From the NCBI GenBank assembly GCA_018970465.1, contig JAGWWI010000001.1:3430-67429 (forward strand): a stretch of DNA of 64,000 bases, written 5' to 3'. Source of the DNA: Patescibacteria group bacterium. Its GTDB lineage: Bacteria; Patescibacteriota; Minisyncoccia; Phycocordibacterales; Phycocordibacteraceae. The notes below the pieces were generated by a model. That model was not told the DNA's origin. It did not search any database and saw only the letters and a program-made list of their open reading frames with translations. A program made the position numbers and the translations under genes. Below, piece by piece: positions 27,949 to 37,691 of this stretch. Numbering within the stretch: position 1 is the stretch's first letter; every line of letters starts with the position of its first letter.

Positions 27949-28434
27949 CTAGAACTTTGCGAGGCGGCGGGCGTGGCGCGGGAGGCCCGAGAAGGGGGTC
28001 GCGACGAAGATGCGGACGGCCTCGAGCGCTTCTGCATCGGTGAGGAAGCGCGTGCCGAGGGAGAGGATGTTCGCGTCGTTGTGCGCCCGCGCGAGGCGGA
28101 CGAGGTCGTAGCCGTCACCTCCTGCGGTAGTGCCCTCGATCTCGATCGCTCCCGTCGCGCTCCGGGGGCCATAGAAGACGGCGGCGCGCGCGCCTTTGAC
28201 GCGGTTCGCCGCCATCGCCTCGCCCTCGCCCGAGCCGCCGATCGCGACGCCGAGCGCGCCCGGCTCCGCGGCGACGCGCTCGGCGAGCGGGGTGATGAAG
28301 TCCGGATAATCGTCCGCGGGGTCAAGCGCCGTCGCGCCGAGGTCGAGCGCTTCGCGCCCCTCGGCCGCGAGCGCGTCGAGGAGGGAACGCTTCAAGTCGA
28401 AGCCCGCGTGGTCGCTCGCCAAATAGAGGCGCAT
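27949..28434 (-). CDS. rpiB: Ribose-5-phosphate isomerase B (RpiB/LacAB family).
   Basis: MRLYLASDHAGFDLKRSLLDAL...GVAIGGSGEGEAMAANRVKGARAA...ANILSLGTRF matches the conserved RpiB blocks, including the Cys-less LacAB-type active region. Confidence 0.88.
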   Translation of the reverse strand: MRLYLASDHAGFDLKRSLLDALAAEGREALDLGATALDPADDYPDFITPLAERVAAEPGALGVAIGGSGEGEAMAANRVKGARAAVFYGPRSATGAIEIEGTTAGGDGYDLVRLARAHNDANILSLGTRFLTDAEALEAVRIFVATPFSGLPRHARRLAKF

Positions 28435-28435
28435 G

Positions 28436-28675
28436 CTAACGCGGGTGGGCTGCCGTCGAGCTCGCCTCGGCCGACCCGGGCGCCTTCGGGGTCGGCGCGG
28501 GCGACGCGGCGGCAGCGCCGATAACCCCGGCAGGGAAGAAGAGCTTCACGACCGGCCCGGTCGCGAGGATAAGCAGGAGAATGAGGATGATAAGCACGGC
28601 GCCGAAGGTTGCGCGCAGGCTCCGCAGCTCGCGCTCGACCGCGTTCAATTTCTTCAAGACAGGATCCGAATCCAT
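28436..28675 (-). CDS. Small hypothetical membrane protein (79 aa), directly upstream of rpiB.
   Basis: N-terminal amphipathic segment plus one TM helix. Its stop lies 1 nt from the rpiB start. Confidence 0.45.
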   Translation of the reverse strand: MDSDPVLKKLNAVERELRSLRATFGAVLIILILLLILATGPVVKLFFPAGVIGAAAASPAPTPKAPGSAEASSTAAHPR

Positions 28676-28724
28676 TGCTGCCAGTATACCAAGGCCGATA
28701 CGGGTGCGCGGCCGTTTCTCACAG

Positions 28725-29006
28725 CTACGAAGCAGGCGGCGCCCAGCCGGGCGGCGCGCCGGGCGGCGGCGTCACGTGCCCGGTAGGGAGCTTCGCGCTC
28801 CCCGCGAGGGCCGGGATGAGGAGGTAGAGCGCGATCGCACCCGCGACAAGCGCGACGCCGAGGAGCACGTAGCTCGCCTGGCGCTCGTCGGCAATCGCGC
28901 CGCCCGAGAGTTCTACGAGGAGCGCGGCGAAGGAGCGGCGCTCCTCAGCGGCGGCCGCCGCGGGAAGCGTGTCCTGCGAATCGAAGCTGATCTGCTCTTG
29001 ATCCAT
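28725..29006 (-). CDS. Pilin-associated small single-pass membrane protein, family member 1.
   Basis: The product MDQEQISFDSQD...AIADERQASYVLLGVALVAGAIALYLLIP is paralogous to 30592..30873 and 36988..37236, which share an acidic N-terminus, a KDERQA-type motif and one TM. It lies 11 nt downstream of the pilin 1 stop. Confidence 0.55.
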   Translation of the reverse strand: MDQEQISFDSQDTLPAAAAAEERRSFAALLVELSGGAIADERQASYVLLGVALVAGAIALYLLIPALAGSAKLPTGHVTPPPGAPPGWAPPAS

Positions 29007-29017
29007 ATTCGGAAAGA

Positions 29018-29509
29018 TTAATTGCTGAGCCAATACCAATTCGGGCCGCCGTTCCCGCACCCTGCTGAAGAGGGGTTCCCCTGCGCCGCGGGCGGATTAT
29101 TCTCGAGGTTGACCGCGAGCACGTAGTGCTGGCCGCCCGAGAGCTGGCAGTACTCGTAAATATGGCAATTCGGCGTCGAGCCGCAGTTGCCGAGGTCGAT
29201 GTTCTGCGGATCGACCGGCACCTGCGAGATGTAGGTCGAGGCGAGGCCGCCCGTCCAGCACGCGCCCCAGCTGCTCCAGGAGCCCGCCTGGCCGCAGAAC
29301 TGCGGATATGTGTTGTGGTCGCTGTAGTAGAGCTCGAGCGCGGTCTGGATCGATTGCAGGTCGCTCTCGCGCCGGGCGTCGCGGCTCTTCGAGCGCGCGG
29401 TGTTCAAGGAGGCGAGCACGATCGAAGACAGGAGCCCGATGATCGCGATCACGACCAAGAGCTCGATGAGCGTGAAGCCTCGATTATGCTGCGGCAGCCG
29501 CAAGGACAT
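29018..29509 (-). CDS. Type IV pilin-like protein (prepilin-type N-terminal cleavage/methylation domain, GspG/PulG-like), paralog 1.
   Basis: Leader MSLRLPQHNRG|FTLIELLVVIAIIGLLSSIVLASLNTAR..., followed by a Cys-rich C-terminal domain. Its leader overlaps the last codons of gap. Confidence 0.85.
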   Translation of the reverse strand: MSLRLPQHNRGFTLIELLVVIAIIGLLSSIVLASLNTARSKSRDARRESDLQSIQTALELYYSDHNTYPQFCGQAGSWSSWGACWTGGLASTYISQVPVDPQNIDLGNCGSTPNCHIYEYCQLSGGQHYVLAVNLENNPPAAQGNPSSAGCGNGGPNWYWLSN

Positions 29510-30497
29510 GGCGCACGAGGGATTCGGTGTAGCCCATCTCGTTGTCGTACCAGGCGAGGACCTTGACGAGGTTGCCGCCGACGACGCGCGTCATCCCGAG
29601 GTCGGCGATCGAGGCGGTCGCTTCGCCGACGATGTCGGAGGAGACGAGCTCTTCGTCGGAGGCGGCGAAGATGCCCTCCCAGCGCGCCTCCCTGGCCGCG
29701 TCGCGGAGAAAGCCGTTCACCTCCTCGGCAGAGGTGTCGCGCTTCGCGATGAAGGTGATGTCCGCGATCGACCCCGCCGGGACGGGGACGCGGAGCGATA
29801 TGCCGTCGAATTTATCCACGAGCTCGGGATACGCCTTGGTGACCGCGATCGCCGCGCCGGTCGAGGTCGGGACGATGTTCGCGGCGCCCGCGCGGCCCTC
29901 CTTCATATCCTTCTTCGATGGGCCGTCGACGATCGACTGCGAGGCGGTGTAGGCGTGGGTCGTCGAGAGGATGGCCTTCTCGATGCCGAGCTTCTCGTTC
30001 AAGATCGCGATCACGGGAGAGGCGGCGTTCGTGGTGCAGGAGGCGTTCGAGGTGACCGGGCAGGCGGCGAAGCGGTCTTCGTTCACGCCCATGAGGACGG
30101 TCGCGCCGGCGACGCCCTCGTCGCCCTTAGCAGGCGCGCTGATGACGACGCGCCGCGCGCCCGCCGTCACGTGTGCGCCTGCAGCCGCGAACTCGGTGAA
30201 GAAGCCGGTCGATTCGACGACGACGTCGACCGCGAGCTCCTTCCAGGGAAGCGCAGCCGGATCCTTCTCGCTACAGAAGCGCACGACCTGATCGCCCATC
30301 CGCAGATTGCCGCCCTCGATCGCGACCGGGAAGGGCGGGCGCTTGTAGACGGTGTCGTGCGCGAGGAGGTACGCGAGGTTCTCGAGGGAGCCGAGGTCGT
30401 TGACTGCCACGATCTCGACCCCGCGCCCCCACGACCGGCGCGCGAACGCTCTGCCAATCCGCCCGAACCCGTTTATCGCTACGCGTATGTCAGCCAT
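29484..30497 (-). CDS. gap: Glyceraldehyde-3-phosphate dehydrogenase, type I.
   Basis: NAD-binding motif INGFGRIGR, active-site ASCTTNA, and WYDNEMGY at the C-terminus. The start is an internal ATG (MADIRVAINGFGRIGR) of track ORF 29484..30614. Confidence 0.92.
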   Translation of the reverse strand: MADIRVAINGFGRIGRAFARRSWGRGVEIVAVNDLGSLENLAYLLAHDTVYKRPPFPVAIEGGNLRMGDQVVRFCSEKDPAALPWKELAVDVVVESTGFFTEFAAAGAHVTAGARRVVISAPAKGDEGVAGATVLMGVNEDRFAACPVTSNASCTTNAASPVIAILNEKLGIEKAILSTTHAYTASQSIVDGPSKKDMKEGRAGAANIVPTSTGAAIAVTKAYPELVDKFDGISLRVPVPAGSIADITFIAKRDTSAEEVNGFLRDAAREARWEGIFAASDEELVSSDIVGEATASIADLGMTRVVGGNLVKVLAWYDNEMGYTESLVRHVLAAAAA

Positions 30498-30591
30498 ATG
30501 CGCCCATGGTAGCACTGCCGCGAGGCGGTAATCCACACCCGCGAGGGGTGCCTCGGCGGGCGGCCCGGCCCCGATGCTATGCTTACCCTCG

Positions 30592-30873
30592 ATGGATGAA
30601 GGGCGGCAGCTCACGATAGATGAACAAGGGGATGCCTACGCTCGGCCAATGCCGGATACCGCGCCCCGGGGCATCACGGGCCTCGTAATCCGGTGGGGCC
30701 TCGCCAAAGACGCGCGGAGCGCCGGGTACGTACTCCTCGGGACAGCGGTCGGGGTGGCCGTGCTCGCGTTCGTCATGCCGATGGTGATCGGCGGAGGCGG
30801 GCGGAGCGCGGGCGTCCCGCAGTCGGTCATCGATGCGAAGACGCCGTCGACGGGTACCGCGCCCTCCCTCTAG
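30592..30873 (+). CDS. Pilin-associated small single-pass membrane protein, family member 2.
   Basis: The product MDEGRQLTIDEQGDAYARPMPDTAPRGITGLVIRWGLAKDARSAGYVLLGTAVGVAVLAFVMP has its stop 2 nt before the pilin 2 ATG. The alternative start at 30574 would overlap the divergent gap region. Confidence 0.55.
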   Translation: MDEGRQLTIDEQGDAYARPMPDTAPRGITGLVIRWGLAKDARSAGYVLLGTAVGVAVLAFVMPMVIGGGGRSAGVPQSVIDAKTPSTGTAPSL

Positions 30874-30875
30874 CC

Positions 30876-31385
30876 ATGCATCGCTCGCGCGGCTTCACCC
30901 TCATCGAGCTCCTGGTGGTCATCGCCATCATCGGGCTCTTGTCGAGCATCGTGCTCGCCTCGTTGAACACGGCACGGCAGAAAGGTTTCGACGCCCAACG
31001 AGTATCGAACATGCGCGCGATACAAACGGCGCTCGAGCTTTACTACAACGATCACGGTCAGTATCCGCCTGGCAACGGTTCTAATTACGGCTGGGCGAGT
31101 CAATGCCCCGCGTGGGGAGGCGTGACGGCGAGCAACGTCATCCCCGGGCTCACGCCGAGTTATATGGCCTCCTTCCCCACCGACCCGCAGATGAATACGA
31201 GTGCCAGTACCTGCTGCTACCTCTATATCGCCGGCAACGGGGACCAGGATTATAAGCTTCTCCTCCACAACTGCCCAACCTCCTACGCTTGCTATGGCAC
31301 TGGGGAGGCGACGAGCGGTTTCTATGATCCTGTTCGGCCTACCTGGGCCTGCCAAATATCGACTCCTGGCGCGCAGGGTTGGTAA
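30876..31385 (+). CDS. Type IV pilin-like protein, paralog 2.
   Basis: MHRSRG|FTLIELLVVIAIIGLLSSIVLASLNTARQKGFDAQRVSNMRAIQTALELYYNDHGQYP..., with a Cys-rich C-terminus. The N-terminal DNA is about 90% identical to pilin 3. Confidence 0.85.
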   Translation: MHRSRGFTLIELLVVIAIIGLLSSIVLASLNTARQKGFDAQRVSNMRAIQTALELYYNDHGQYPPGNGSNYGWASQCPAWGGVTASNVIPGLTPSYMASFPTDPQMNTSASTCCYLYIAGNGDQDYKLLLHNCPTSYACYGTGEATSGFYDPVRPTWACQISTPGAQGW

Positions 31386-31407: not shown

Positions 31408-33033
31408 ATGAGCGCAATCATTCCCGCTATACTGCCGCGGACGCGCGAGGAGCTTGCGGCGGCGCTTCGGAAGCTTGCGCCGATTGCGGGCGTCACGGTC
31501 GTGCAGATCGACGCGGTCGACGGGCGCTTCGTCGCATCGGCCTCCTGGCCGTATGCGGAGCCCGCGCGTCTCGGAGCAGCGGATCTGGCACGCGAGCTGC
31601 AGGACGTGCTCGCGCCCTATGCAGGGCGCTTTGTAATCGACGCGGACCTCATGGTCGCCGACCAGATCGAGGCGGCGGAGGCGTGGCTTGCCGCGGGCGC
31701 CTCGCGGGTGACGCTCCACATCGAGGCGCTCGGCGAGCCGCTCCGCGCGCTCGCCGCTCTCGAGCACCGGCTTGGCCGCCGGCAGGGCGGGAAGCCCTAC
31801 GAGCTCGGGCTCGCCGCCGGGCTCGGCACCGACCTCGCGCGCCTCGCGTCGCTCATCCCGCACGCGCGGCCCGACTACGTGCAGTTGATGGGCATCCGGA
31901 CCATCGGCCGGCAGCACGAGCCCTTTGACGCGCGCGTCCTCGCGCGCGTCAGGGCGCTCCGCGCGCGCTATCCGCGGCTCGTGATCCAGGTTGACGGCGG
32001 CGTCTCGGCGGAGACGACGCGCGCCTTGATCGACGCGGGCGCCGACCGGCTCGTCGCCGGGCACGCGATCCTCGGCGCCGCCGACTCGGCGGCCGCGTTC
32101 GCCTCGCTCGCTACGATCGCGGCGGGCGACGCGCGGTATGATGAAGCCATGCCGTTGACCGATGGAGATGTGCGAGCGATCGCCGAGAAGGCGAACGAGA
32201 TCCGCGAGACGATCGTCGAGATGCTCGTCGCCGCGGGCTCGGGGCACACTGCGGGCCCGCTTGGCTTGGCGGACATCTTCGCCGCCTTCTACTTCCACAT
32301 CCTCCGCCACGACCCGAAGAACCCGGAGTGGGAGGGGCGCGACCGCCTCATCCTCTCGAACGGCCACACTTGCCCCGTCCGCTACGCGGCGATGGCGCAC
32401 GCGGGGTACTTCCCGGCCGAGGAGTGTCTTACGCTGCGGAAGTTCGGCTCGCGCCTCCAGGGCCACCCCGAGCGCGTGCGGCTCCCCGGGCTCGAGACGA
32501 CCTCCGGCCCCTTAGGCGAAGGGCTCGCGCAGGCCGCGGGTATGGCCCTCGCCTTGCGGATGCAGGGGGAGAGAAACAGAGTGTATTGCGTCGTCTCCGA
32601 CGGCGAGCAGGACGAGGGGAATACCTGGGAGGCAGCCCTCTTCGCCGGGAAATATAAGCTCGGGAACCTCACCGCGATCATGGATCGCAATAACATACAA
32701 ATAGATGGGGTGACGGAAGACGTCATGCCGCTAGAGCCCATCAAGGATAAGTACGAGGCCTTCGGCTGGCACGTCCTCGAATGCTCGGGGCACGACATCC
32801 GCGCGTTCGTCGCGGCGGTCGAGGAGGCGAAGGCGATCTACGAGAAGCCGACGATGATCATCGCTCACACGATCCCCGGCCGCGGCGTCCCCGAGATCGA
32901 GTTCGACTACCGCTGGCATGGCGTCCCGCCTGGCGCAGGTCCCGAGGACGTCTGGAAGAAGGGCGAGCAGGGCGCCGCGATGCTGCGCGAACTCCGCACG
33001 CTCGGAGGCCGTCTCCCGCACGAATATGCTTAG
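31408..33033 (+). CDS. Fusion protein: a ribulose-phosphate 3-epimerase-like TIM barrel (N-terminal, about 235 aa) followed by the transketolase N-terminal (TPP-binding PP) section.
   Basis: The N-terminal half parallels Rpe blocks: IIPAILP..., VQIDAVDGRFV, DADLMV, AGASRVTLHIEA, VQLMGI, IQVDGGV and AGADRLVAGHAILG. The C-terminal half reads GSGHTAGPLGLADIFAAFYFHILRHDPKNPEWEGRDRLILSNGH...GPLGEGL...VSDGEQDEGNTWEA...NLTAIMDRNNIQIDG, a transketolase N-terminal pattern. The ORF is continuous with no stop. Confidence 0.75.
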   Translation: MSAIIPAILPRTREELAAALRKLAPIAGVTVVQIDAVDGRFVASASWPYAEPARLGAADLARELQDVLAPYAGRFVIDADLMVADQIEAAEAWLAAGASRVTLHIEALGEPLRALAALEHRLGRRQGGKPYELGLAAGLGTDLARLASLIPHARPDYVQLMGIRTIGRQHEPFDARVLARVRALRARYPRLVIQVDGGVSAETTRALIDAGADRLVAGHAILGAADSAAAFASLATIAAGDARYDEAMPLTDGDVRAIAEKANEIRETIVEMLVAAGSGHTAGPLGLADIFAAFYFHILRHDPKNPEWEGRDRLILSNGHTCPVRYAAMAHAGYFPAEECLTLRKFGSRLQGHPERVRLPGLETTSGPLGEGLAQAAGMALALRMQGERNRVYCVVSDGEQDEGNTWEAALFAGKYKLGNLTAIMDRNNIQIDGVTEDVMPLEPIKDKYEAFGWHVLECSGHDIRAFVAAVEEAKAIYEKPTMIIAHTIPGRGVPEIEFDYRWHGVPPGAGPEDVWKKGEQGAAMLRELRTLGGRLPHEYA

Positions 33034-34036
33034 CCCCGCTGCGAAGCTCTCGGCGAAGGTCTGCGCCGACGATATCGAAGAGAAGCCGACGCGCGACGGC
33101 TTCGGCGCGGGCGTCGTCTTCGCGGGGAAGAAGGACGAGCGCATCGTCGTCCTCACCGCCGACCTCGCGGAATCGACGCGGGCGGAGTGGTTCGAGAAGG
33201 AATTTCCCGAGCGCTTTGTAGAAATGGGCGTCGCCGAGCAGGCGATGGCCACCGTCGCGAGCGGCATGGCTGCCGTCGGGAAGATCCCGTTCATTACGAG
33301 CTACGCGGCCTTCAACCCGGGCCGCAACTACGAGCAGATCCGCACGACGATCGCCTTGAACGAGGCGAATGTGAAAGTCTGCGGCATGCACGCAGGCGTC
33401 TCGGTCGGCCCTGACGGCGCGACGCATCAGATGCTCGAGGATATCGGGATGATGCGCATGCTCCCCAACATGATCGTCCTCAATCCGGGCGACGCGATCG
33501 AAGCACAGAAGGCCGTCATCGCCGCGGCTAAGCACGCGGGGCCCGTCTATCTGCGCTTCGGCCGCGCGGCGACACCGGTCTTCACTACCGAGGCGACGCC
33601 GTTTACGCTTGGCAAAGCGCTTACGCTCTTCGATCCGGAGGCAGAGAGCAGCGCGCCCGGCACGAAGCCCCGCGTCGCGATCCTCTCGACCGGCGCCTTG
33701 TCCTACGAAGCGCTCCGGGCGGCGAAGGCGCTCGCTGCGGAGGGTATCGCCGCTTCGGTGACCCACTTCGCCACGGTGAAGCCGCTCGATATCGAAGCGC
33801 TCGAGCGCACGGCCCGCCGCGCGGGCGCAGTCGTTACCGTCGAGGAGCACCAGGCCGCGGGCGGATTCGGCTCGGCGGTCGCGGAGCTTCTTGGCGAGCG
33901 CATGCTGCTGCCGATCGCGCGCATCGGGGTGCGCGACCGCTTCGGCGAGTCGGGCGAGCCCGCGGAACTTCTCGCGGCGTTCGGGCTCGACGCCGCTGCG
34001 ATCGCGGCAGCGGCGAAGCGCCTCGTGCTAGGATAG
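33026..34036 (+). CDS. Transketolase C-terminal section (Pyr plus C-terminal domains; split transketolase subunit B).
   Basis: The sequence EFPERFVEMGVAEQAMATVASGMA...FITSYAAFNP...NVKVCGMHAGVSVGPDGATHQMLEDIGMMRMLPNM is the transketolase pyrimidine-binding pattern. It overlaps the upstream gene by 8 nt. Confidence 0.88.
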   Translation: MLSPAAKLSAKVCADDIEEKPTRDGFGAGVVFAGKKDERIVVLTADLAESTRAEWFEKEFPERFVEMGVAEQAMATVASGMAAVGKIPFITSYAAFNPGRNYEQIRTTIALNEANVKVCGMHAGVSVGPDGATHQMLEDIGMMRMLPNMIVLNPGDAIEAQKAVIAAAKHAGPVYLRFGRAATPVFTTEATPFTLGKALTLFDPEAESSAPGTKPRVAILSTGALSYEALRAAKALAAEGIAASVTHFATVKPLDIEALERTARRAGAVVTVEEHQAAGGFGSAVAELLGERMLLPIARIGVRDRFGESGEPAELLAAFGLDAAAIAAAAKRLVLG

Positions 34037-34214: not shown

Positions 34215-35198
34215 TTAGAGCGGCCGCGCGGCGTAGCTCGCAGGAGCCTCGGCGAGGAGCTTCTCGAGGGCGTCGCGCGCGAGGAGGCCTTTCTGCGCGC
34301 CGATCTCCTGCACGACCGCCATCGAGTTCACCGGCCCCCAGAGGAGGGCCTCGGCGAGGGGCTTCCCGAGCGCCAAGGCCGCGACGATGGTCGAGGTGCA
34401 GGCGTCGCCCGCGCCTGTGCGCTCATACGGGGGCTTGGGGTCCGGATACATCGGGACGAACCACGCGCCCGTGCTGTCGGCGGCATAGGCGCCCTTCGGG
34501 CCGTCGGTGACGATCGCGATCTCGGGGCCTAACGCGCGAAGCTTCTCGAGGAGCGTCGCGGGTTCGCTCTCAGCGGGGAGGGCGAGGATGCGCTCGGCCT
34601 CCTCCTTGTTGCAGGCGACGAACGCAGCGGCCCGGTAGAGGGGCGCGAGCTTCTCGACCCCGAGCGCCATCTCGAAGGTGCTCGGCTGGAAAGCGAGCTT
34701 GGTCTCCGGGTGCTTCGCGCACCAGTCGGCGAGCGCGAGGTGGAACTCGAGCGAGCGCCCGGCAGAGGAGAGGTAGATCCATTTGGGCGCGGGAAGGTCC
34801 TCGGGAATCGCGTACGCGAAGTCCTCGTGCCGCACGAGGATAGTGCGCTCCGCCTCGAACCAGAGCACGTAGTCGTGGTTGGTCGCGACGCCCGCATTGA
34901 CGCGCACGAAGCGCGTGTCGACGCGTTCCCGTTCGAAGGTCGCGATGATCTCTTTGCCGTAGTCGTCGCCGCCCACGTTCGAGAGGAAGCCGGTTGCAAG
35001 GCCGAGGCGCGCGGCGGCGACTGCCGCGTTCGCTGCGTTCCCGACGCCCGCGACGCGCACCGAGAACTCGTAGGGGATCTTGTCGCCCCAGTTCATGCTG
35101 ATCGTGCAGTTCTCGTCGTTTAGGTCGCAGTTGACGCGCGCGTCCTTCAAGCGGATGAACTCATCCACCGTCGTGTCGCCTATGGCCAAGAAATCCAT
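34215..35198 (-). CDS. PfkB-family carbohydrate/nucleoside kinase (ribokinase-like).
   Basis: N-terminal Gly-rich motif VAGVGNAANAAV and C-terminal GAGDACTSTIV (the GAGD anion-hole motif). The start is an internal ATG (MDFLAIGDTTVD) of track ORF 34215..35339. Confidence 0.82.
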   Translation of the reverse strand: MDFLAIGDTTVDEFIRLKDARVNCDLNDENCTISMNWGDKIPYEFSVRVAGVGNAANAAVAAARLGLATGFLSNVGGDDYGKEIIATFERERVDTRFVRVNAGVATNHDYVLWFEAERTILVRHEDFAYAIPEDLPAPKWIYLSSAGRSLEFHLALADWCAKHPETKLAFQPSTFEMALGVEKLAPLYRAAAFVACNKEEAERILALPAESEPATLLEKLRALGPEIAIVTDGPKGAYAADSTGAWFVPMYPDPKPPYERTGAGDACTSTIVAALALGKPLAEALLWGPVNSMAVVQEIGAQKGLLARDALEKLLAEAPASYAARPL

Positions 35199-35221: not shown

Positions 35222-36223
35222 ATGACCGACCTCTTCGCCGCCGCGCGCGCACTCGTCGAGCCCAGCAAGGGCCTCCTCGCCGCCGATGAGAGCACGCCCA
35301 CCGCAGCGAAGCGCCTCGCCGCGTACGGCATCGCCTCATCGCCCGAGCTCCGCCGGCAGTTCCGCGATCTCTTCCTCTCGATGGAGGGCGTCGAGCGCTA
35401 CCTCTCGGGCGTCATCCTCTACGAGGAGACATTCGCGCAGAAGGGGAGCGACGGGAAGCTCTTCCCCGACTCGCTCGAGGCGCGCGGGATCGCGCCGGGG
35501 ATCAAGGTCGACGAAGGGACCGAGCCCTTCCCGGGGAGCGCGGAGGAGCTCATCACCAAGGGCCTCGTCGGCCTCCCCGAGCGGCTCGCGGCTTTCAAGA
35601 AGGGCGGCGCGGTCTTCACCAAGTGGCGAGCCGTGATCCGGATCGAGGGCGACGCCCTGCCTACTGCCGCCGCCGTCCTCGAGAACGCGAAGCGCCTCGC
35701 GAGCTACGCCAAGGAGGCGCAGGTCGCGGGCCTCGTGCCCATCGTCGAGCCCGAGGTCCTCTTGGCGGGGAAGCACTCGCGCGCGCGGTCACAAGCGGTC
35801 ATCCAAGAGACGCTCGCGACGCTCTTCTCGGCGCTCGCGGCGCAAGGGGTCGACCTTGGCGGCCTCCTCCTCAAGACCGCGATGGCCCGTTCGGGCGACG
35901 CCTCGGCGCACAAAGACGCGTCCGAGGAGGTCGCGGCGGCGACTCTCGAAGCGCTCGTTGCGAGTGTTCCGCGGGAGGTGGCGGGCATCGTCTTCCTCTC
36001 GGGCGGCGAGAGCCCCGACGAAGCGACCGCTAACCTCGCGGCGATCACGCGCGAGGCGCGCCGCGTCGAGGCGCCCTGGCCCCTGACCTTCTCCTACGCG
36101 CGCGCCCTGCAGGAGGAGGCCTTGGCGCTCTGGAAGGGCAAGGCCGAGAACGTCGAGGCGGCCCGCGCCGCCTTCCGCGCCCGGCTCGAGAAGGTCCAGG
36201 CCGCGCTTGTCTCCTCCCCATAA
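35222..36223 (+). CDS. Fructose-bisphosphate aldolase, class I.
   Basis: KGLLAADESTPT, Schiff-base region GIKVDEG, and FTKWRAV...LVPIVEPEVLLAGKH: canonical class I FBA motifs. Confidence 0.9.
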   Translation: MTDLFAAARALVEPSKGLLAADESTPTAAKRLAAYGIASSPELRRQFRDLFLSMEGVERYLSGVILYEETFAQKGSDGKLFPDSLEARGIAPGIKVDEGTEPFPGSAEELITKGLVGLPERLAAFKKGGAVFTKWRAVIRIEGDALPTAAAVLENAKRLASYAKEAQVAGLVPIVEPEVLLAGKHSRARSQAVIQETLATLFSALAAQGVDLGGLLLKTAMARSGDASAHKDASEEVAAATLEALVASVPREVAGIVFLSGGESPDEATANLAAITREARRVEAPWPLTFSYARALQEEALALWKGKAENVEAARAAFRARLEKVQAALVSSP

Positions 36224-36234
36224 CCCTGCAAGAT

Positions 36235-36931
36235 GTAGGACATAGTATGTCCTACAATGGAGAGGTCATGGAACTCTGGCACGTGATATATCGGGGCGTT
36301 GACGGCCGAGATATCTTCAAGGACGACCAAGATCGCGCGCGGTTCGTACATGACCTCTACGAATTCAACGACACGGCTCCAGCCGGTGTTTATGTCGGAC
36401 ATACTATGTCCAAAGCTCGGGAGACGATTGTCGAAGTGCATGGGTGGAAACTCATGCCCAACCACGTGCATTTACTTCTTTCGGAATCTCGTGATGACGG
36501 ATTCTCGCTGTTTCTTAAGAAAATGCGCGGATATGCCCGGTACTACAACGAACGCCATAGCCGTCGCGGGATCTTATTCGACAAGATGAAGAAGGTGCAC
36601 ATCGAACGCGAAGCGCATTTCCTGTACATACTCCATTACATCCACCTGAACGGGCTCGACGATCTGCCAGGCGCAGAGCGGTGGCGGGAGCGTGACAAAG
36701 GGGCGATATCCGATGTTGGTGCGGCGCTCGCGCATCTCGGGCAGGATAAATGGAGCAGCTTCCGCGATTATTGCGGCATCGCGAATTTCCCCTCGATACT
36801 CACCACACGCTTGTTCGAAGATCGTCCGAGAGAATACGAGCGCGATCTTGAAGACTTTCTGCAAAATCGGACTGACCCTGGGCTGGCGGCTTACGATCTC
36901 GAATAAACGTAGGACATAGTATGTCCTACGT
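36235..36931 (+). mobile_element. Minimal IS200/IS605- or RAYT-like element: one HUH Y1 transposase gene bracketed by two identical hairpin palindromes GTAGGACATAGTATGTCCTAC.
   Basis: Left palindrome at 36235..36255; right palindrome at 36909..36929 (extended to ACGT...ACGT at 36907..36931). The tnpA ATG lies inside the left hairpin. The element sits in an intergenic slot between fba and a pilin pair. Confidence 0.65.
36247..36906 (+). CDS. tnpA: HUH single-tyrosine (Y1) transposase, REP-associated tyrosine transposase (TnpA_REP) / IS200-like.
   Basis: ELWHVIYRGVDGRDIFKDDQDRARFV, an HUH motif LMPNHVHLLL, and a catalytic-Tyr region RGYARYYNERHSRRGILF. Confidence 0.75.
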   Translation: MSYNGEVMELWHVIYRGVDGRDIFKDDQDRARFVHDLYEFNDTAPAGVYVGHTMSKARETIVEVHGWKLMPNHVHLLLSESRDDGFSLFLKKMRGYARYYNERHSRRGILFDKMKKVHIEREAHFLYILHYIHLNGLDDLPGAERWRERDKGAISDVGAALAHLGQDKWSSFRDYCGIANFPSILTTRLFEDRPREYERDLEDFLQNRTDPGLAAYDLE

Positions 36932-36987
36932 TCCAGGGCTGTGGATAGCGTGGGTGCGCGCGGCGCGGGAGTGTACGCTTAGCGCAT

Positions 36988-37236
36988 ATGGCGGACATGC
37001 AGTTCGAGGAGCCCTCCTACGGCGCGCCGGTCGTCGATGCGGGGCCGAAGGGCCTTGCGGGGCTCCTTATCAGGTGGGGCGTCGCGAAGGACGAGCGTCA
37101 AGCGCAAGTCGCGCTCCTCGTCATCTTGGTCGTTGCGCTCATCGGGGCGGCTAGCCTCTTCCTCTTCGGCGGGGCGGCTGGCTCGTCGCGGCCGCCGGTC
37201 CCGAATATCGACGGCACGCCGAGGACCGGCCCATGA
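36988..37236 (+). CDS. Pilin-associated small single-pass membrane protein, family member 3.
   Basis: The product MADMQFEEPSYGAPVVDAGPKGLAGLLIRWGVAKDERQAQVALLVILVVALIGAASLFLF overlaps the pilin 3 start as ATGA. Confidence 0.55.
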   Translation: MADMQFEEPSYGAPVVDAGPKGLAGLLIRWGVAKDERQAQVALLVILVVALIGAASLFLFGGAAGSSRPPVPNIDGTPRTGP

Positions 37237-37691
37237 ATTCGCCTGCTCGCGGCTTCACCTTGATCGAGCTCCTGGTCGTCATCGCGATCATCGGGCTCCT
37301 CTCCGCGATCGTGCTCGCCTCCTTGAACACCGCGCGCACGCGCGGGCAGGACGCGGCGCGCGAGTCGGACGTAAAGTCCCTCGAGACCGCGATGGAGCTC
37401 TACTACAACGACAACGGCGGCTACCCGACCTCGAACGGCAGCGGAAACGGCGACGTGCTCCTCTCTGACGCGACTTTGGTCGGGAAGCTGGTCCCCAAGT
37501 ACATCGCAAGCATGCCAGCTCTTCTCATCGCTGACGGCGACCACTATTACGGCGCGGGCGCGACCTCGGGCGTCGAGACGACCGGCTATGACATGTACAT
37601 TTACGTCGGTGCATCAAACTCCTACTGCCGCGCCGGCACGCTCCCCACTTGGACGGGTGACTGGGGCACTCCGACGGTCTGCAACTTCTAG
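37233..37691 (+). CDS. Type IV pilin-like protein, paralog 3.
   Basis: The product MNSPARG|FTLIELLVVIAIIGLLSAIVLASLNTARTRGQDAARESDVKSLETAMELYYNDNGGYP... has a C-terminal CRAG...TVCNF Cys pair. Confidence 0.85.
   Translation: MNSPARGFTLIELLVVIAIIGLLSAIVLASLNTARTRGQDAARESDVKSLETAMELYYNDNGGYPTSNGSGNGDVLLSDATLVGKLVPKYIASMPALLIADGDHYYGAGATSGVETTGYDMYIYVGASNSYCRAGTLPTWTGDWGTPTVCNF

Follow-up and report, generated by a model that had tools for sequence, protein, structure and literature searches.

The fused rpe-tktN gene and its two domains

We analyzed a 64,000-nt stretch of DNA from a Patescibacteria group bacterium (assembly GCA_018970465.1, contig JAGWWI010000001.1, positions 3,430 to 67,429), hereafter called the window, in which a single gene joins a barrel of the ribulose-phosphate 3-epimerase (RPE) family in frame to the N-terminal subunit of a split transketolase (rpe-tktN, Table 1). 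The initial annotation, made from the sequence alone, had proposed one uninterrupted open reading frame (ORF), and this was borne out: no in-frame stop lies between the domains, and the ORF listing placed the stop codon at 33031-33033. The product is identical in sequence to the NCBI entry 'hypothetical protein KGI78_00665' from Patescibacteria group bacterium. The start codon ATG at 31408 (MSAIIPAILP) is backed by homologues, as the fused and unfused relatives all begin no more than 1-3 residues away. The longest form of the ORF, starting at GTG 31201, was rejected because it would run into the pilin gene (end 31385) and no homologue extended upstream.

Both halves were recovered as first claimed, an RPE-family barrel followed by a transketolase N-section, by Pfam and by profile and fold searches. 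The family PF00834 (Ribul_P_3_epim) matched residues 4-221 with an E-value of 2.9e-15 and 56.6 bits (gathering cut-off, 21.1 bits), spanning profile positions 2-197 of 198, and PF00456 (Transketolase_N) matched residues 261-510 with an E-value of 2.2e-61; the two domains thus exceeded their Pfam cut-offs. NCBIfam likewise assigned one half to RPE, with scores well under its RPE cut-offs, and the other to transketolase. All of the RPE-like blocks named in the initial annotation were present, namely VQIDAVDG (32-39), IDADLMV (77-83), TLHIEA (102-107), YVQLMGI (157-163), IQVDGGV (193-199), and VAGHAIL (216-222).

Table 1. Positions of the features in the window, and of the hairpins in the tktN genes of relatives (numbered within each relative's locus)
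Feature	Position	Strand	Length	Remark
Fused rpe-tktN gene	31408..33033	+	541 aa + stop	Single uninterrupted ORF
RPE-family (β/α)8 barrel	31408..32127	+	aa 1-240	
Linker (GDARYDE)	32128..32148	+	aa 241-247	Putative translated former intergenic spacer; low pLDDT
Transketolase N-subunit (TPP-binding PP domain)	32149..33030	+	aa 248-541	Begins at the apparently retained ancestral Met248 (MPLTD)
tktC, transketolase Pyr and C-terminal subunit	33026..34036	+	336 aa	PF02779 Transket_pyr and PF02780 Transketolase_C
rpiB, ribose-5-phosphate isomerase B	27949..28434	-	161 aa	
gap, glyceraldehyde-3-phosphate dehydrogenase	29484..30497	-	337 aa from MADIRVAING	Pfam
Type-IV-pilin-like gene upstream of the fusion	30693..31385	+		N_methyl motif
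PfkB-family sugar or sugar-phosphate kinase	34215..35198	-	327 aa from MDFLAIGD	
Class I fructose-bisphosphate aldolase	35207/35222..36223	+		
ORF with weak IS200-like Y1 transposase match	36247-36906	+	219 aa	E 0.003
tktN hairpins of relatives	L001 11147-11187; L026 1864-1906; L049 5232-5274			

The identity of the N-terminal barrel was addressed by sequence, profile, and structure searches. A single-sequence search of the PDB returned RPEs only (Toxoplasma 4nu7, E 3e-16), and a profile of 115 family members gave full-length matches to 14 solved structures, each an RPE or AlsE, with E-values from 8e-35 to 7e-23. For HisA, HPS, ThiE, and IMPDH, the match was confined to the final 40-100 residues, where the phosphate-binding turns are located, with E-values of 1e-7 or worse. 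The barrel was modeled with AlphaFold2 at a predicted local distance difference test score (pLDDT) of 94.2 and a predicted template-modeling score (pTM) of 0.91, with eight β-strands. When this model was compared to the PDB with Foldseek, the top 36 matches were RPEs at target-normalized template-modeling (TM) scores of 0.78-0.88 (about 0.86) and 20-29% identity, and HPS, KGPDC, and ThiE, tried as the barrel family, scored lower than the RPEs. Assignment to a non-epimerase family had been named beforehand as the outcome that would overturn the annotation; profile and fold both point to RPE, and by these two lines the barrel is a member of the RPE family and of no other. The caution in the initial annotation that the barrel is divergent was justified, as both canonical metal-binding histidines are replaced.

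In the transketolase half, the motifs of the PP domain were found as SGH (278-280), SNGH (317-320), GHPE (352-355), the thiamine pyrophosphate (TPP)/Mg motif SDGEQDEG...DRNN (397-429), and WHG (503-505), which we take to correspond to His26, His66, His100, Asp155, Asn185, and His261 of E. coli TktA. This half shares 70-78% identity with unfused Paceibacteria TktN, and the partner subunit of a split transketolase, tktC, lies directly downstream. From these sequence features, there is no reason to doubt that the TktN half would form a normal split transketolase with TktC.

Authenticity and origin of the fusion

The fusion was confirmed as genuine. The identical 541-residue protein was found under four NCBI accessions on four contigs of 'Patescibacteria group bacterium' metagenome-assembled genomes (MAGs), and 12 further homologues with 51-70% identity, recovered from NCBI, JGI, ENA, and Logan assemblies, covered the whole 541 residues with both Pfam domains. 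The fusion was present, then, in 13 proteins (51-100% identity) from different samples. A stop or frameshift at the junction had been foreseen as a possible flaw; none was found, and the junction was intact in the four identical accessions and the 12 homologues. In a multiple alignment, the linker varied among the fused homologues in both sequence and length, from 7 to about 35 residues, and its place in the alignment was exactly the interval from the end of the separate RPE-like proteins to the initiator Met of the separate TktN proteins (M-[AP]-L-T-D). The ancestral TktN Met was kept in six of the 13 fused proteins (Met248 of the window, encoded by the ATG at 32149, and five others) and replaced by Leu, Ser, Ala, or Thr in the other seven. 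Because the Met is replaced in these seven, it is not required, and conservation applies to the full-length polypeptide and not to internal initiation. The sequence does derive from a MAG, and the ancestral start of tktN persists in frame at 32149, so two alternatives had to be weighed: an assembly or sequencing artifact, through loss of a stop or a frameshift, and translation mainly from Met248 to give a separate TktN. Given the repeated recovery of the intact junction in assemblies from several databases and the loss of the internal Met in more than half of the fused proteins, we regard this explanation as very improbable, and its artifact part as largely refuted.

The gene order in unfused relatives was gap-rpiB-rpe-tktN-tktC, with pfkB and fba somewhat further on. 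This order is common to the fused relatives, and in one of them (P0006) it was the same as in the unfused relatives with rpe and tktN joined. In two unfused loci (L003 and L004), the spacer between rpe and tktN was only 10-20 nt. GTDB species representatives were scanned with an alignment of the RPE domain, which yielded at least 533 relatives, and the best 80, all Paceibacteria-type Patescibacteria, were analyzed. The relatives among the GTDB matches listed were all unfused and shared no more than 50% identity. None of the best 80 loci carried a fused tktN: in 59 it was the gene directly downstream of rpe, in 16 it was further downstream with roughly one gene in between, in one it was on the other strand, and in four it fell outside the fetched range. 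The look at relatives suggested in the initial annotation therefore found rpe and tktN as separate and usually adjacent genes.

Of the 13 fused proteins, 12 formed an exclusive clade without an unfused member in a neighbor-joining tree built on the RPE domain, and the remaining one (P0014) fell just outside that clade and was grouped with three unfused sequences. The adjacency of the unfused genes across short spacers in relatives, together with the exclusive fused clade, argues that the fusion arose by read-through of the spacer. On this account, read-through would have extended past the stop codon and across the 10-30 nt separating the operon neighbors rpe and tktN. The spacer would have turned into the linker, with the former tktN start still visible as Met248. 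The fusion therefore appears to be a derived state of one small Paceibacteria lineage.

Active site and proposed function of the barrel

The active site was mapped by HMMER and MAFFT alignments to the human RPE (3ovp) and the Streptococcus pyogenes RPE (2fli), which were concordant. In the numbering of these PDB alignments, we take the ligand and catalytic residues to be His35/His70 and Asp37/Asp175 in the human enzyme and Asp36/Asp176 in the S. pyogenes enzyme. The catalytic pair is kept in the window protein as Asp35 (VQIDAVDG) and Asp196 (IQVDGG), which align with these aspartates; His104 of TLHIE is likewise retained, as are two of three Met residues at the active site. Gln33, Asp35, Asp80, His104, and Asp196 were invariant across the 115 members of the Paceibacteria subfamily; by motif count, the Gln/Asp ligand pair was present in 109 of the 115, the remainder being mostly motif misses. 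The subfamily also has conserved residues of its own. Trp47 and Pro48, within a lengthened β2-α2 loop, and Gln159, which precedes the conserved β6 Met by two residues, are invariant, and Tyr49 occurs in at least 90% of members. The ligand positions of other Rpe-TktN fusions in the databases were H/H or Q/H, and Q/D was found only in the Paceibacteria subfamily. Fusions of the DPANN type (P0243, P0249-P0251, P0395, and P0396) carried Gln at the first ligand (QIDxMDG) and His at the second (EAHLM); the change of His to Gln is therefore wider than Paceibacteria, and the change of His to Asp is the Paceibacteria-specific step. Since Gln and Asp retain the capacity to bind a metal, the barrel is probably active, with an altered metal preference.

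Taken together, we give a probability of about 0.72 to the proposal that the gene originated from the joining of neighboring genes and encodes a bifunctional polypeptide that assembles with TktC and in which a short flexible linker connects a divergent Paceibacteria ribulose 5-phosphate (Ru5P) 3-epimerase to the N-subunit of a split transketolase. The Ru5P/xylulose 5-phosphate (Xu5P) epimerase activity is likely, as predicted from family, fold, and synteny. RpiB would convert ribose 5-phosphate (R5P) to Ru5P, and the barrel would convert Ru5P to Xu5P by proton transfer between the two aspartates (Asp35/Asp196) via an enediolate. TktN and the translationally coupled TktC would make up the active transketolase, consuming Xu5P and R5P, and the PfkB kinase, class I aldolase, and glyceraldehyde-3-phosphate dehydrogenase encoded next door would link the pentose phosphates to lower glycolysis. 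The simplest account of a benefit of the fusion would be a fixed 1:1 stoichiometry and co-expression, easily arising from a spacer of 10-30 nt.

Several observations weigh against this proposal. The protein did not reach the NCBIfam equivalog TIGR01163 (56-60 bits compared to a cut-off of 212.6) or the subfamily NF004076 (68-72 bits compared to a cut-off of 165), and its NCBI label is 'hypothetical'. The human ligands His35 and His70 correspond to Gln33 and Asp80 (D-A-D-L-M-V compared to D-x-H-L-M-V), and the phosphate loop PGFGGQ is changed to IGRQHEP. A canonical rpe may lie elsewhere in the genome, as the search covered 64 kb only; within the window, and in favor of the proposal, no second RPE was found by tblastn with the human and S. 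pyogenes RPEs or by a hidden Markov model of canonical and divergent RPEs in six frames. The full-length model lends no support to a shared active-site tunnel: its pTM was 0.69 and the linker pLDDT about 56 while the single domains were confident, with no fixed interdomain geometry predicted.

The replaced ligands could also be read as those of an RPE-family paralogue that no longer epimerizes Ru5P and that acts on another sugar phosphate, as AlsE (allulose-6-phosphate 3-epimerase) does, or serves as a non-catalytic or regulatory binding domain on transketolase. The loss of both His ligands to an invariant Gln33 and Asp80, the new invariants near the active site (Trp47, Pro48, and Gln159), and the missed equivalog cut-offs are in line with such a paralogue, and a true Rpe with other ligands would be unprecedented given the published account of Rpe metal ligands (PMC11127058). 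We nonetheless consider it unlikely. The acid/base pair Asp35/Asp196 and His104 of TLHxE are invariant, which argues for retained catalysis; the substituting residues are still able to ligate metal; and bona fide RPEs lead both the profile and the fold matches, with AlsE 10 orders of magnitude worse. The gene also stands between rpiB and tktN in most of the best 80 species, where the step from Ru5P to Xu5P is needed, and the window is without another RPE. In another reading, suggested in the initial annotation, the fusion would be specifically an adaptation for channeling, with Xu5P passing from the barrel to the transketolase site without bulk equilibration. The two steps are consecutive, and independent Rpe-TktN fusions in Paceibacteria, DPANN, and Thaumarchaeota, together with an RpiB-Rpe-TktN triple fusion, suggest a recurrent benefit; recurrence is equally explained, however, by conserved adjacency and very short spacers, across which a stop codon is easily lost. 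The linker of 7 to about 35 residues is variable in sequence and predicted to be disordered, the model has no confident interdomain interface, all of the best 80 GTDB Paceibacteria species are unfused, and transketolase needs bulk R5P or erythrose 4-phosphate acceptors as well. Channeling of Xu5P, as judged from the model, is thus speculation, and we hold it to be still less probable than a barrel that no longer epimerizes Ru5P.

The preferred reading, an Ru5P epimerase joined to TktN, bears on what has been reported for the metal site of this enzyme. In a 2024 PNAS study, Rpe required a divalent metal for stabilization of the intermediate, His-34 of E. coli Rpe was an iron ligand oxidized by H2O2, and the metal ligands were stated to be invariant between organisms, with the choice of metal set by cell metal pools and not by the protein (PMC11127058). 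We tentatively propose, as a possibility that we rate below an even chance, that the Paceibacteria RPE subfamily, fused or not and spread over more than 500 GTDB species, is a natural Ru5P 3-epimerase in which a Gln-Asp-Asp-Asp metal site has taken the place of His-Asp-His-Asp; this oxygen-rich set should favor Mn(II)/Mg(II) over Fe(II)/Zn(II), or the enzyme might even be metal-independent. If true, the rebuilt site would remove the Fenton-sensitive iron and the oxidizable His, because of which canonical Rpe is a prime H2O2 target. An active subfamily would be a natural counter-example to the stated invariance of Rpe metal ligands and to the statement that metal pools, not the protein, set the choice of metal (PMC11127058). 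The replacement of both histidines by Gln and Asp is an experiment of nature through which the metal selectivity and the peroxide sensitivity of this model mononuclear enzyme can be tested. [quoted passage not shown]

Gene neighborhood and hairpin insertions

The remaining predictions of the initial annotation concerned the neighbors of the fusion gene. The overlapping gene for the transketolase C-section was found immediately downstream, and rpiB, the PfkB kinase, gap, and the class I aldolase were all found nearby (Table 1). The ATG of tktC at 33026 sits within the last codons of the fusion gene, giving an overlap of 8 nt (ATGCTTAG; cacgaatATGcttag), which is conserved in relatives. The longest ORF form of tktC, starting at 32918 with an overlap of 116 nt, was rejected since homologues back 33026. 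In the window, gap and rpiB are encoded on the strand opposite to the fusion gene and run divergently from it, whereas in relatives (L001, L003, and L004) they are co-directional and immediately upstream of rpe, which indicates a local inversion or rearrangement of the minus-strand gap...rpiB segment (27949-30614) compared to these relatives. Pilin-like genes were interspersed around the cluster, including the one directly upstream of the fusion gene and others at 29018-29509 (-) and 37233-37691 (+).

PfkB-TktN fusions (P0274 and P0279) were found among the database matches, and these suggest that the PfkB kinase of the window shares the transketolase pathway. The kinase might be a ribokinase, or a sedoheptulose-7-phosphate or fructose-6-phosphate kinase substituting for transaldolase or phosphofructokinase.

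Perfect hairpins of 41-43 nt (arms of 20-21 nt, loop of 1 nt) were observed in frame in the tktN genes of relatives, in the protein loop ALRMD-[ins]-RVYC. They encode an identical peptide on both strands (DVVRPTSDVGRTTS), and their arm sequences differ between species yet remain perfectly palindromic. One protein (P0012) carried a second hairpin copy inside the RPE domain (residues ~30-50). An in-frame tktN hairpin was not present in the window's own gene. The tktN hairpins resemble coding insertions of the repetitive extragenic palindromic (REP)-like or Rickettsia-palindromic-element-like type.

The ORF of the window that weakly matches an IS200-like Y1 transposase has the same hairpin, GTAGGACATAgtATGTCCTAC, on either side, at 36233-36257 and at 36906-36932. 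For the motif ACGTAGGACATA, six matches at up to two mismatches were counted compared to 1.6 expected, and the core GTAGGAC was common to the window hairpins and the in-frame tktN hairpins of relatives. This ORF and its hairpins look like a REP-associated tyrosine transposase (RAYT) with REP hairpins.

Comparison with known fusions and epimerases

A fusion of the N-terminus of Tkt to Rpe was reported in Thaumarchaeota as cluster 341.1 (Padalko et al., 2024, mSystems, PMC11237513). Our comparison with Thaumarchaeota rests on this published statement, and the archaeal sequences compared here were from DPANN. When the fusion protein was searched exhaustively with HMMER against 1.84 billion cluster representatives, the matches included Rpe-TktN fusions of other lineages (P0243, P0249, P0250, P0251, P0269, and P0257), an RpiB-Rpe-TktN triple fusion of 728 residues (P0266), and the PfkB-TktN fusions, which are 586-613 residues long. 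The relatives of P0249 include named Woesearchaeota and Nanobdellota proteins, and P0251 is encoded in an archaeal locus (L086) with rpiB, rpe-tktN, tktC, and STT3 in that order.

The DPANN fusions (Woesearchaeota P0395 and Nanobdellota P0251) have the same architecture as the window protein, with RPE at the N-terminus and the TktN of a split transketolase at the C-terminus, and in L086, as in the window, a separate overlapping tktC is next; rpiB is upstream in L086. The fused representatives of other lineages listed, two of them from named DPANN lineages, shared 40-47% identity overall with the window protein. The two halves of the window protein are instead closest to unfused Paceibacteria genes (TktN, 70-78% identity; RPE, 35-54% identity), and the archaeal RPE domains have His at the second ligand (H/H or Q/H), whereas the window has Q/D. 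Common descent with the archaeal fusions was not supported by the neighbor-joining tree, in which the Paceibacteria fusions nest among unfused Paceibacteria RPEs and the other fusions stand apart. Because the halves are closest to unfused Paceibacteria genes and the archaeal fusions group elsewhere, the window fusion appears to be independent. An Rpe-TktN fusion is already known from archaea, and the window, judged from these comparisons, is an independently evolved instance that is fairly ordinary as a fusion. It offers a clean, datable case of fusion between operon neighbors, and the Rpe-TktN join would have arisen separately in Paceibacteria and archaea, all small-genome lineages. The less ordinary point is the loss of both His ligands across the subfamily, rather than the fusion itself.

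The stand-alone RPE-like proteins of Paceibacteria (for example, P0124, P0128, and P0189) share with the window protein the motifs IPAILP, VQIDxVDGRF, WPY, DxDLM, TxHxE, YVQxMGI, and QVDGG and the position in the operon, but they are separate proteins of 225-245 residues, their genes being divided from tktN by a stop codon and about 5-60 nt of spacer. They are labeled 'ribulose-phosphate 3-epimerase' by JGI and mostly 'hypothetical protein' by NCBI. Canonical RPEs (human 3ovp, S. pyogenes 2fli, and E. coli Rpe) share with the window protein the (β/α)8 fold, the catalytic Asp pair, TxHxE, the DGG and G-S/H turns that bind phosphate, two of three Met residues at the active site, and the position in the pathway. 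They differ from it in sequence (only 25-29% identity), in the His-Asp-His-Asp site compared to Gln-Asp-Asp-Asp, and in the phosphate loop, which is PGFGGQ in the canonical enzymes and IG(R/K)Q(G/H)EP in the window subfamily. The window domain has, in addition, a longer β2-α2 loop bearing the conserved W-P-Y, of which Trp and Pro are invariant, and it is fused to TktN.

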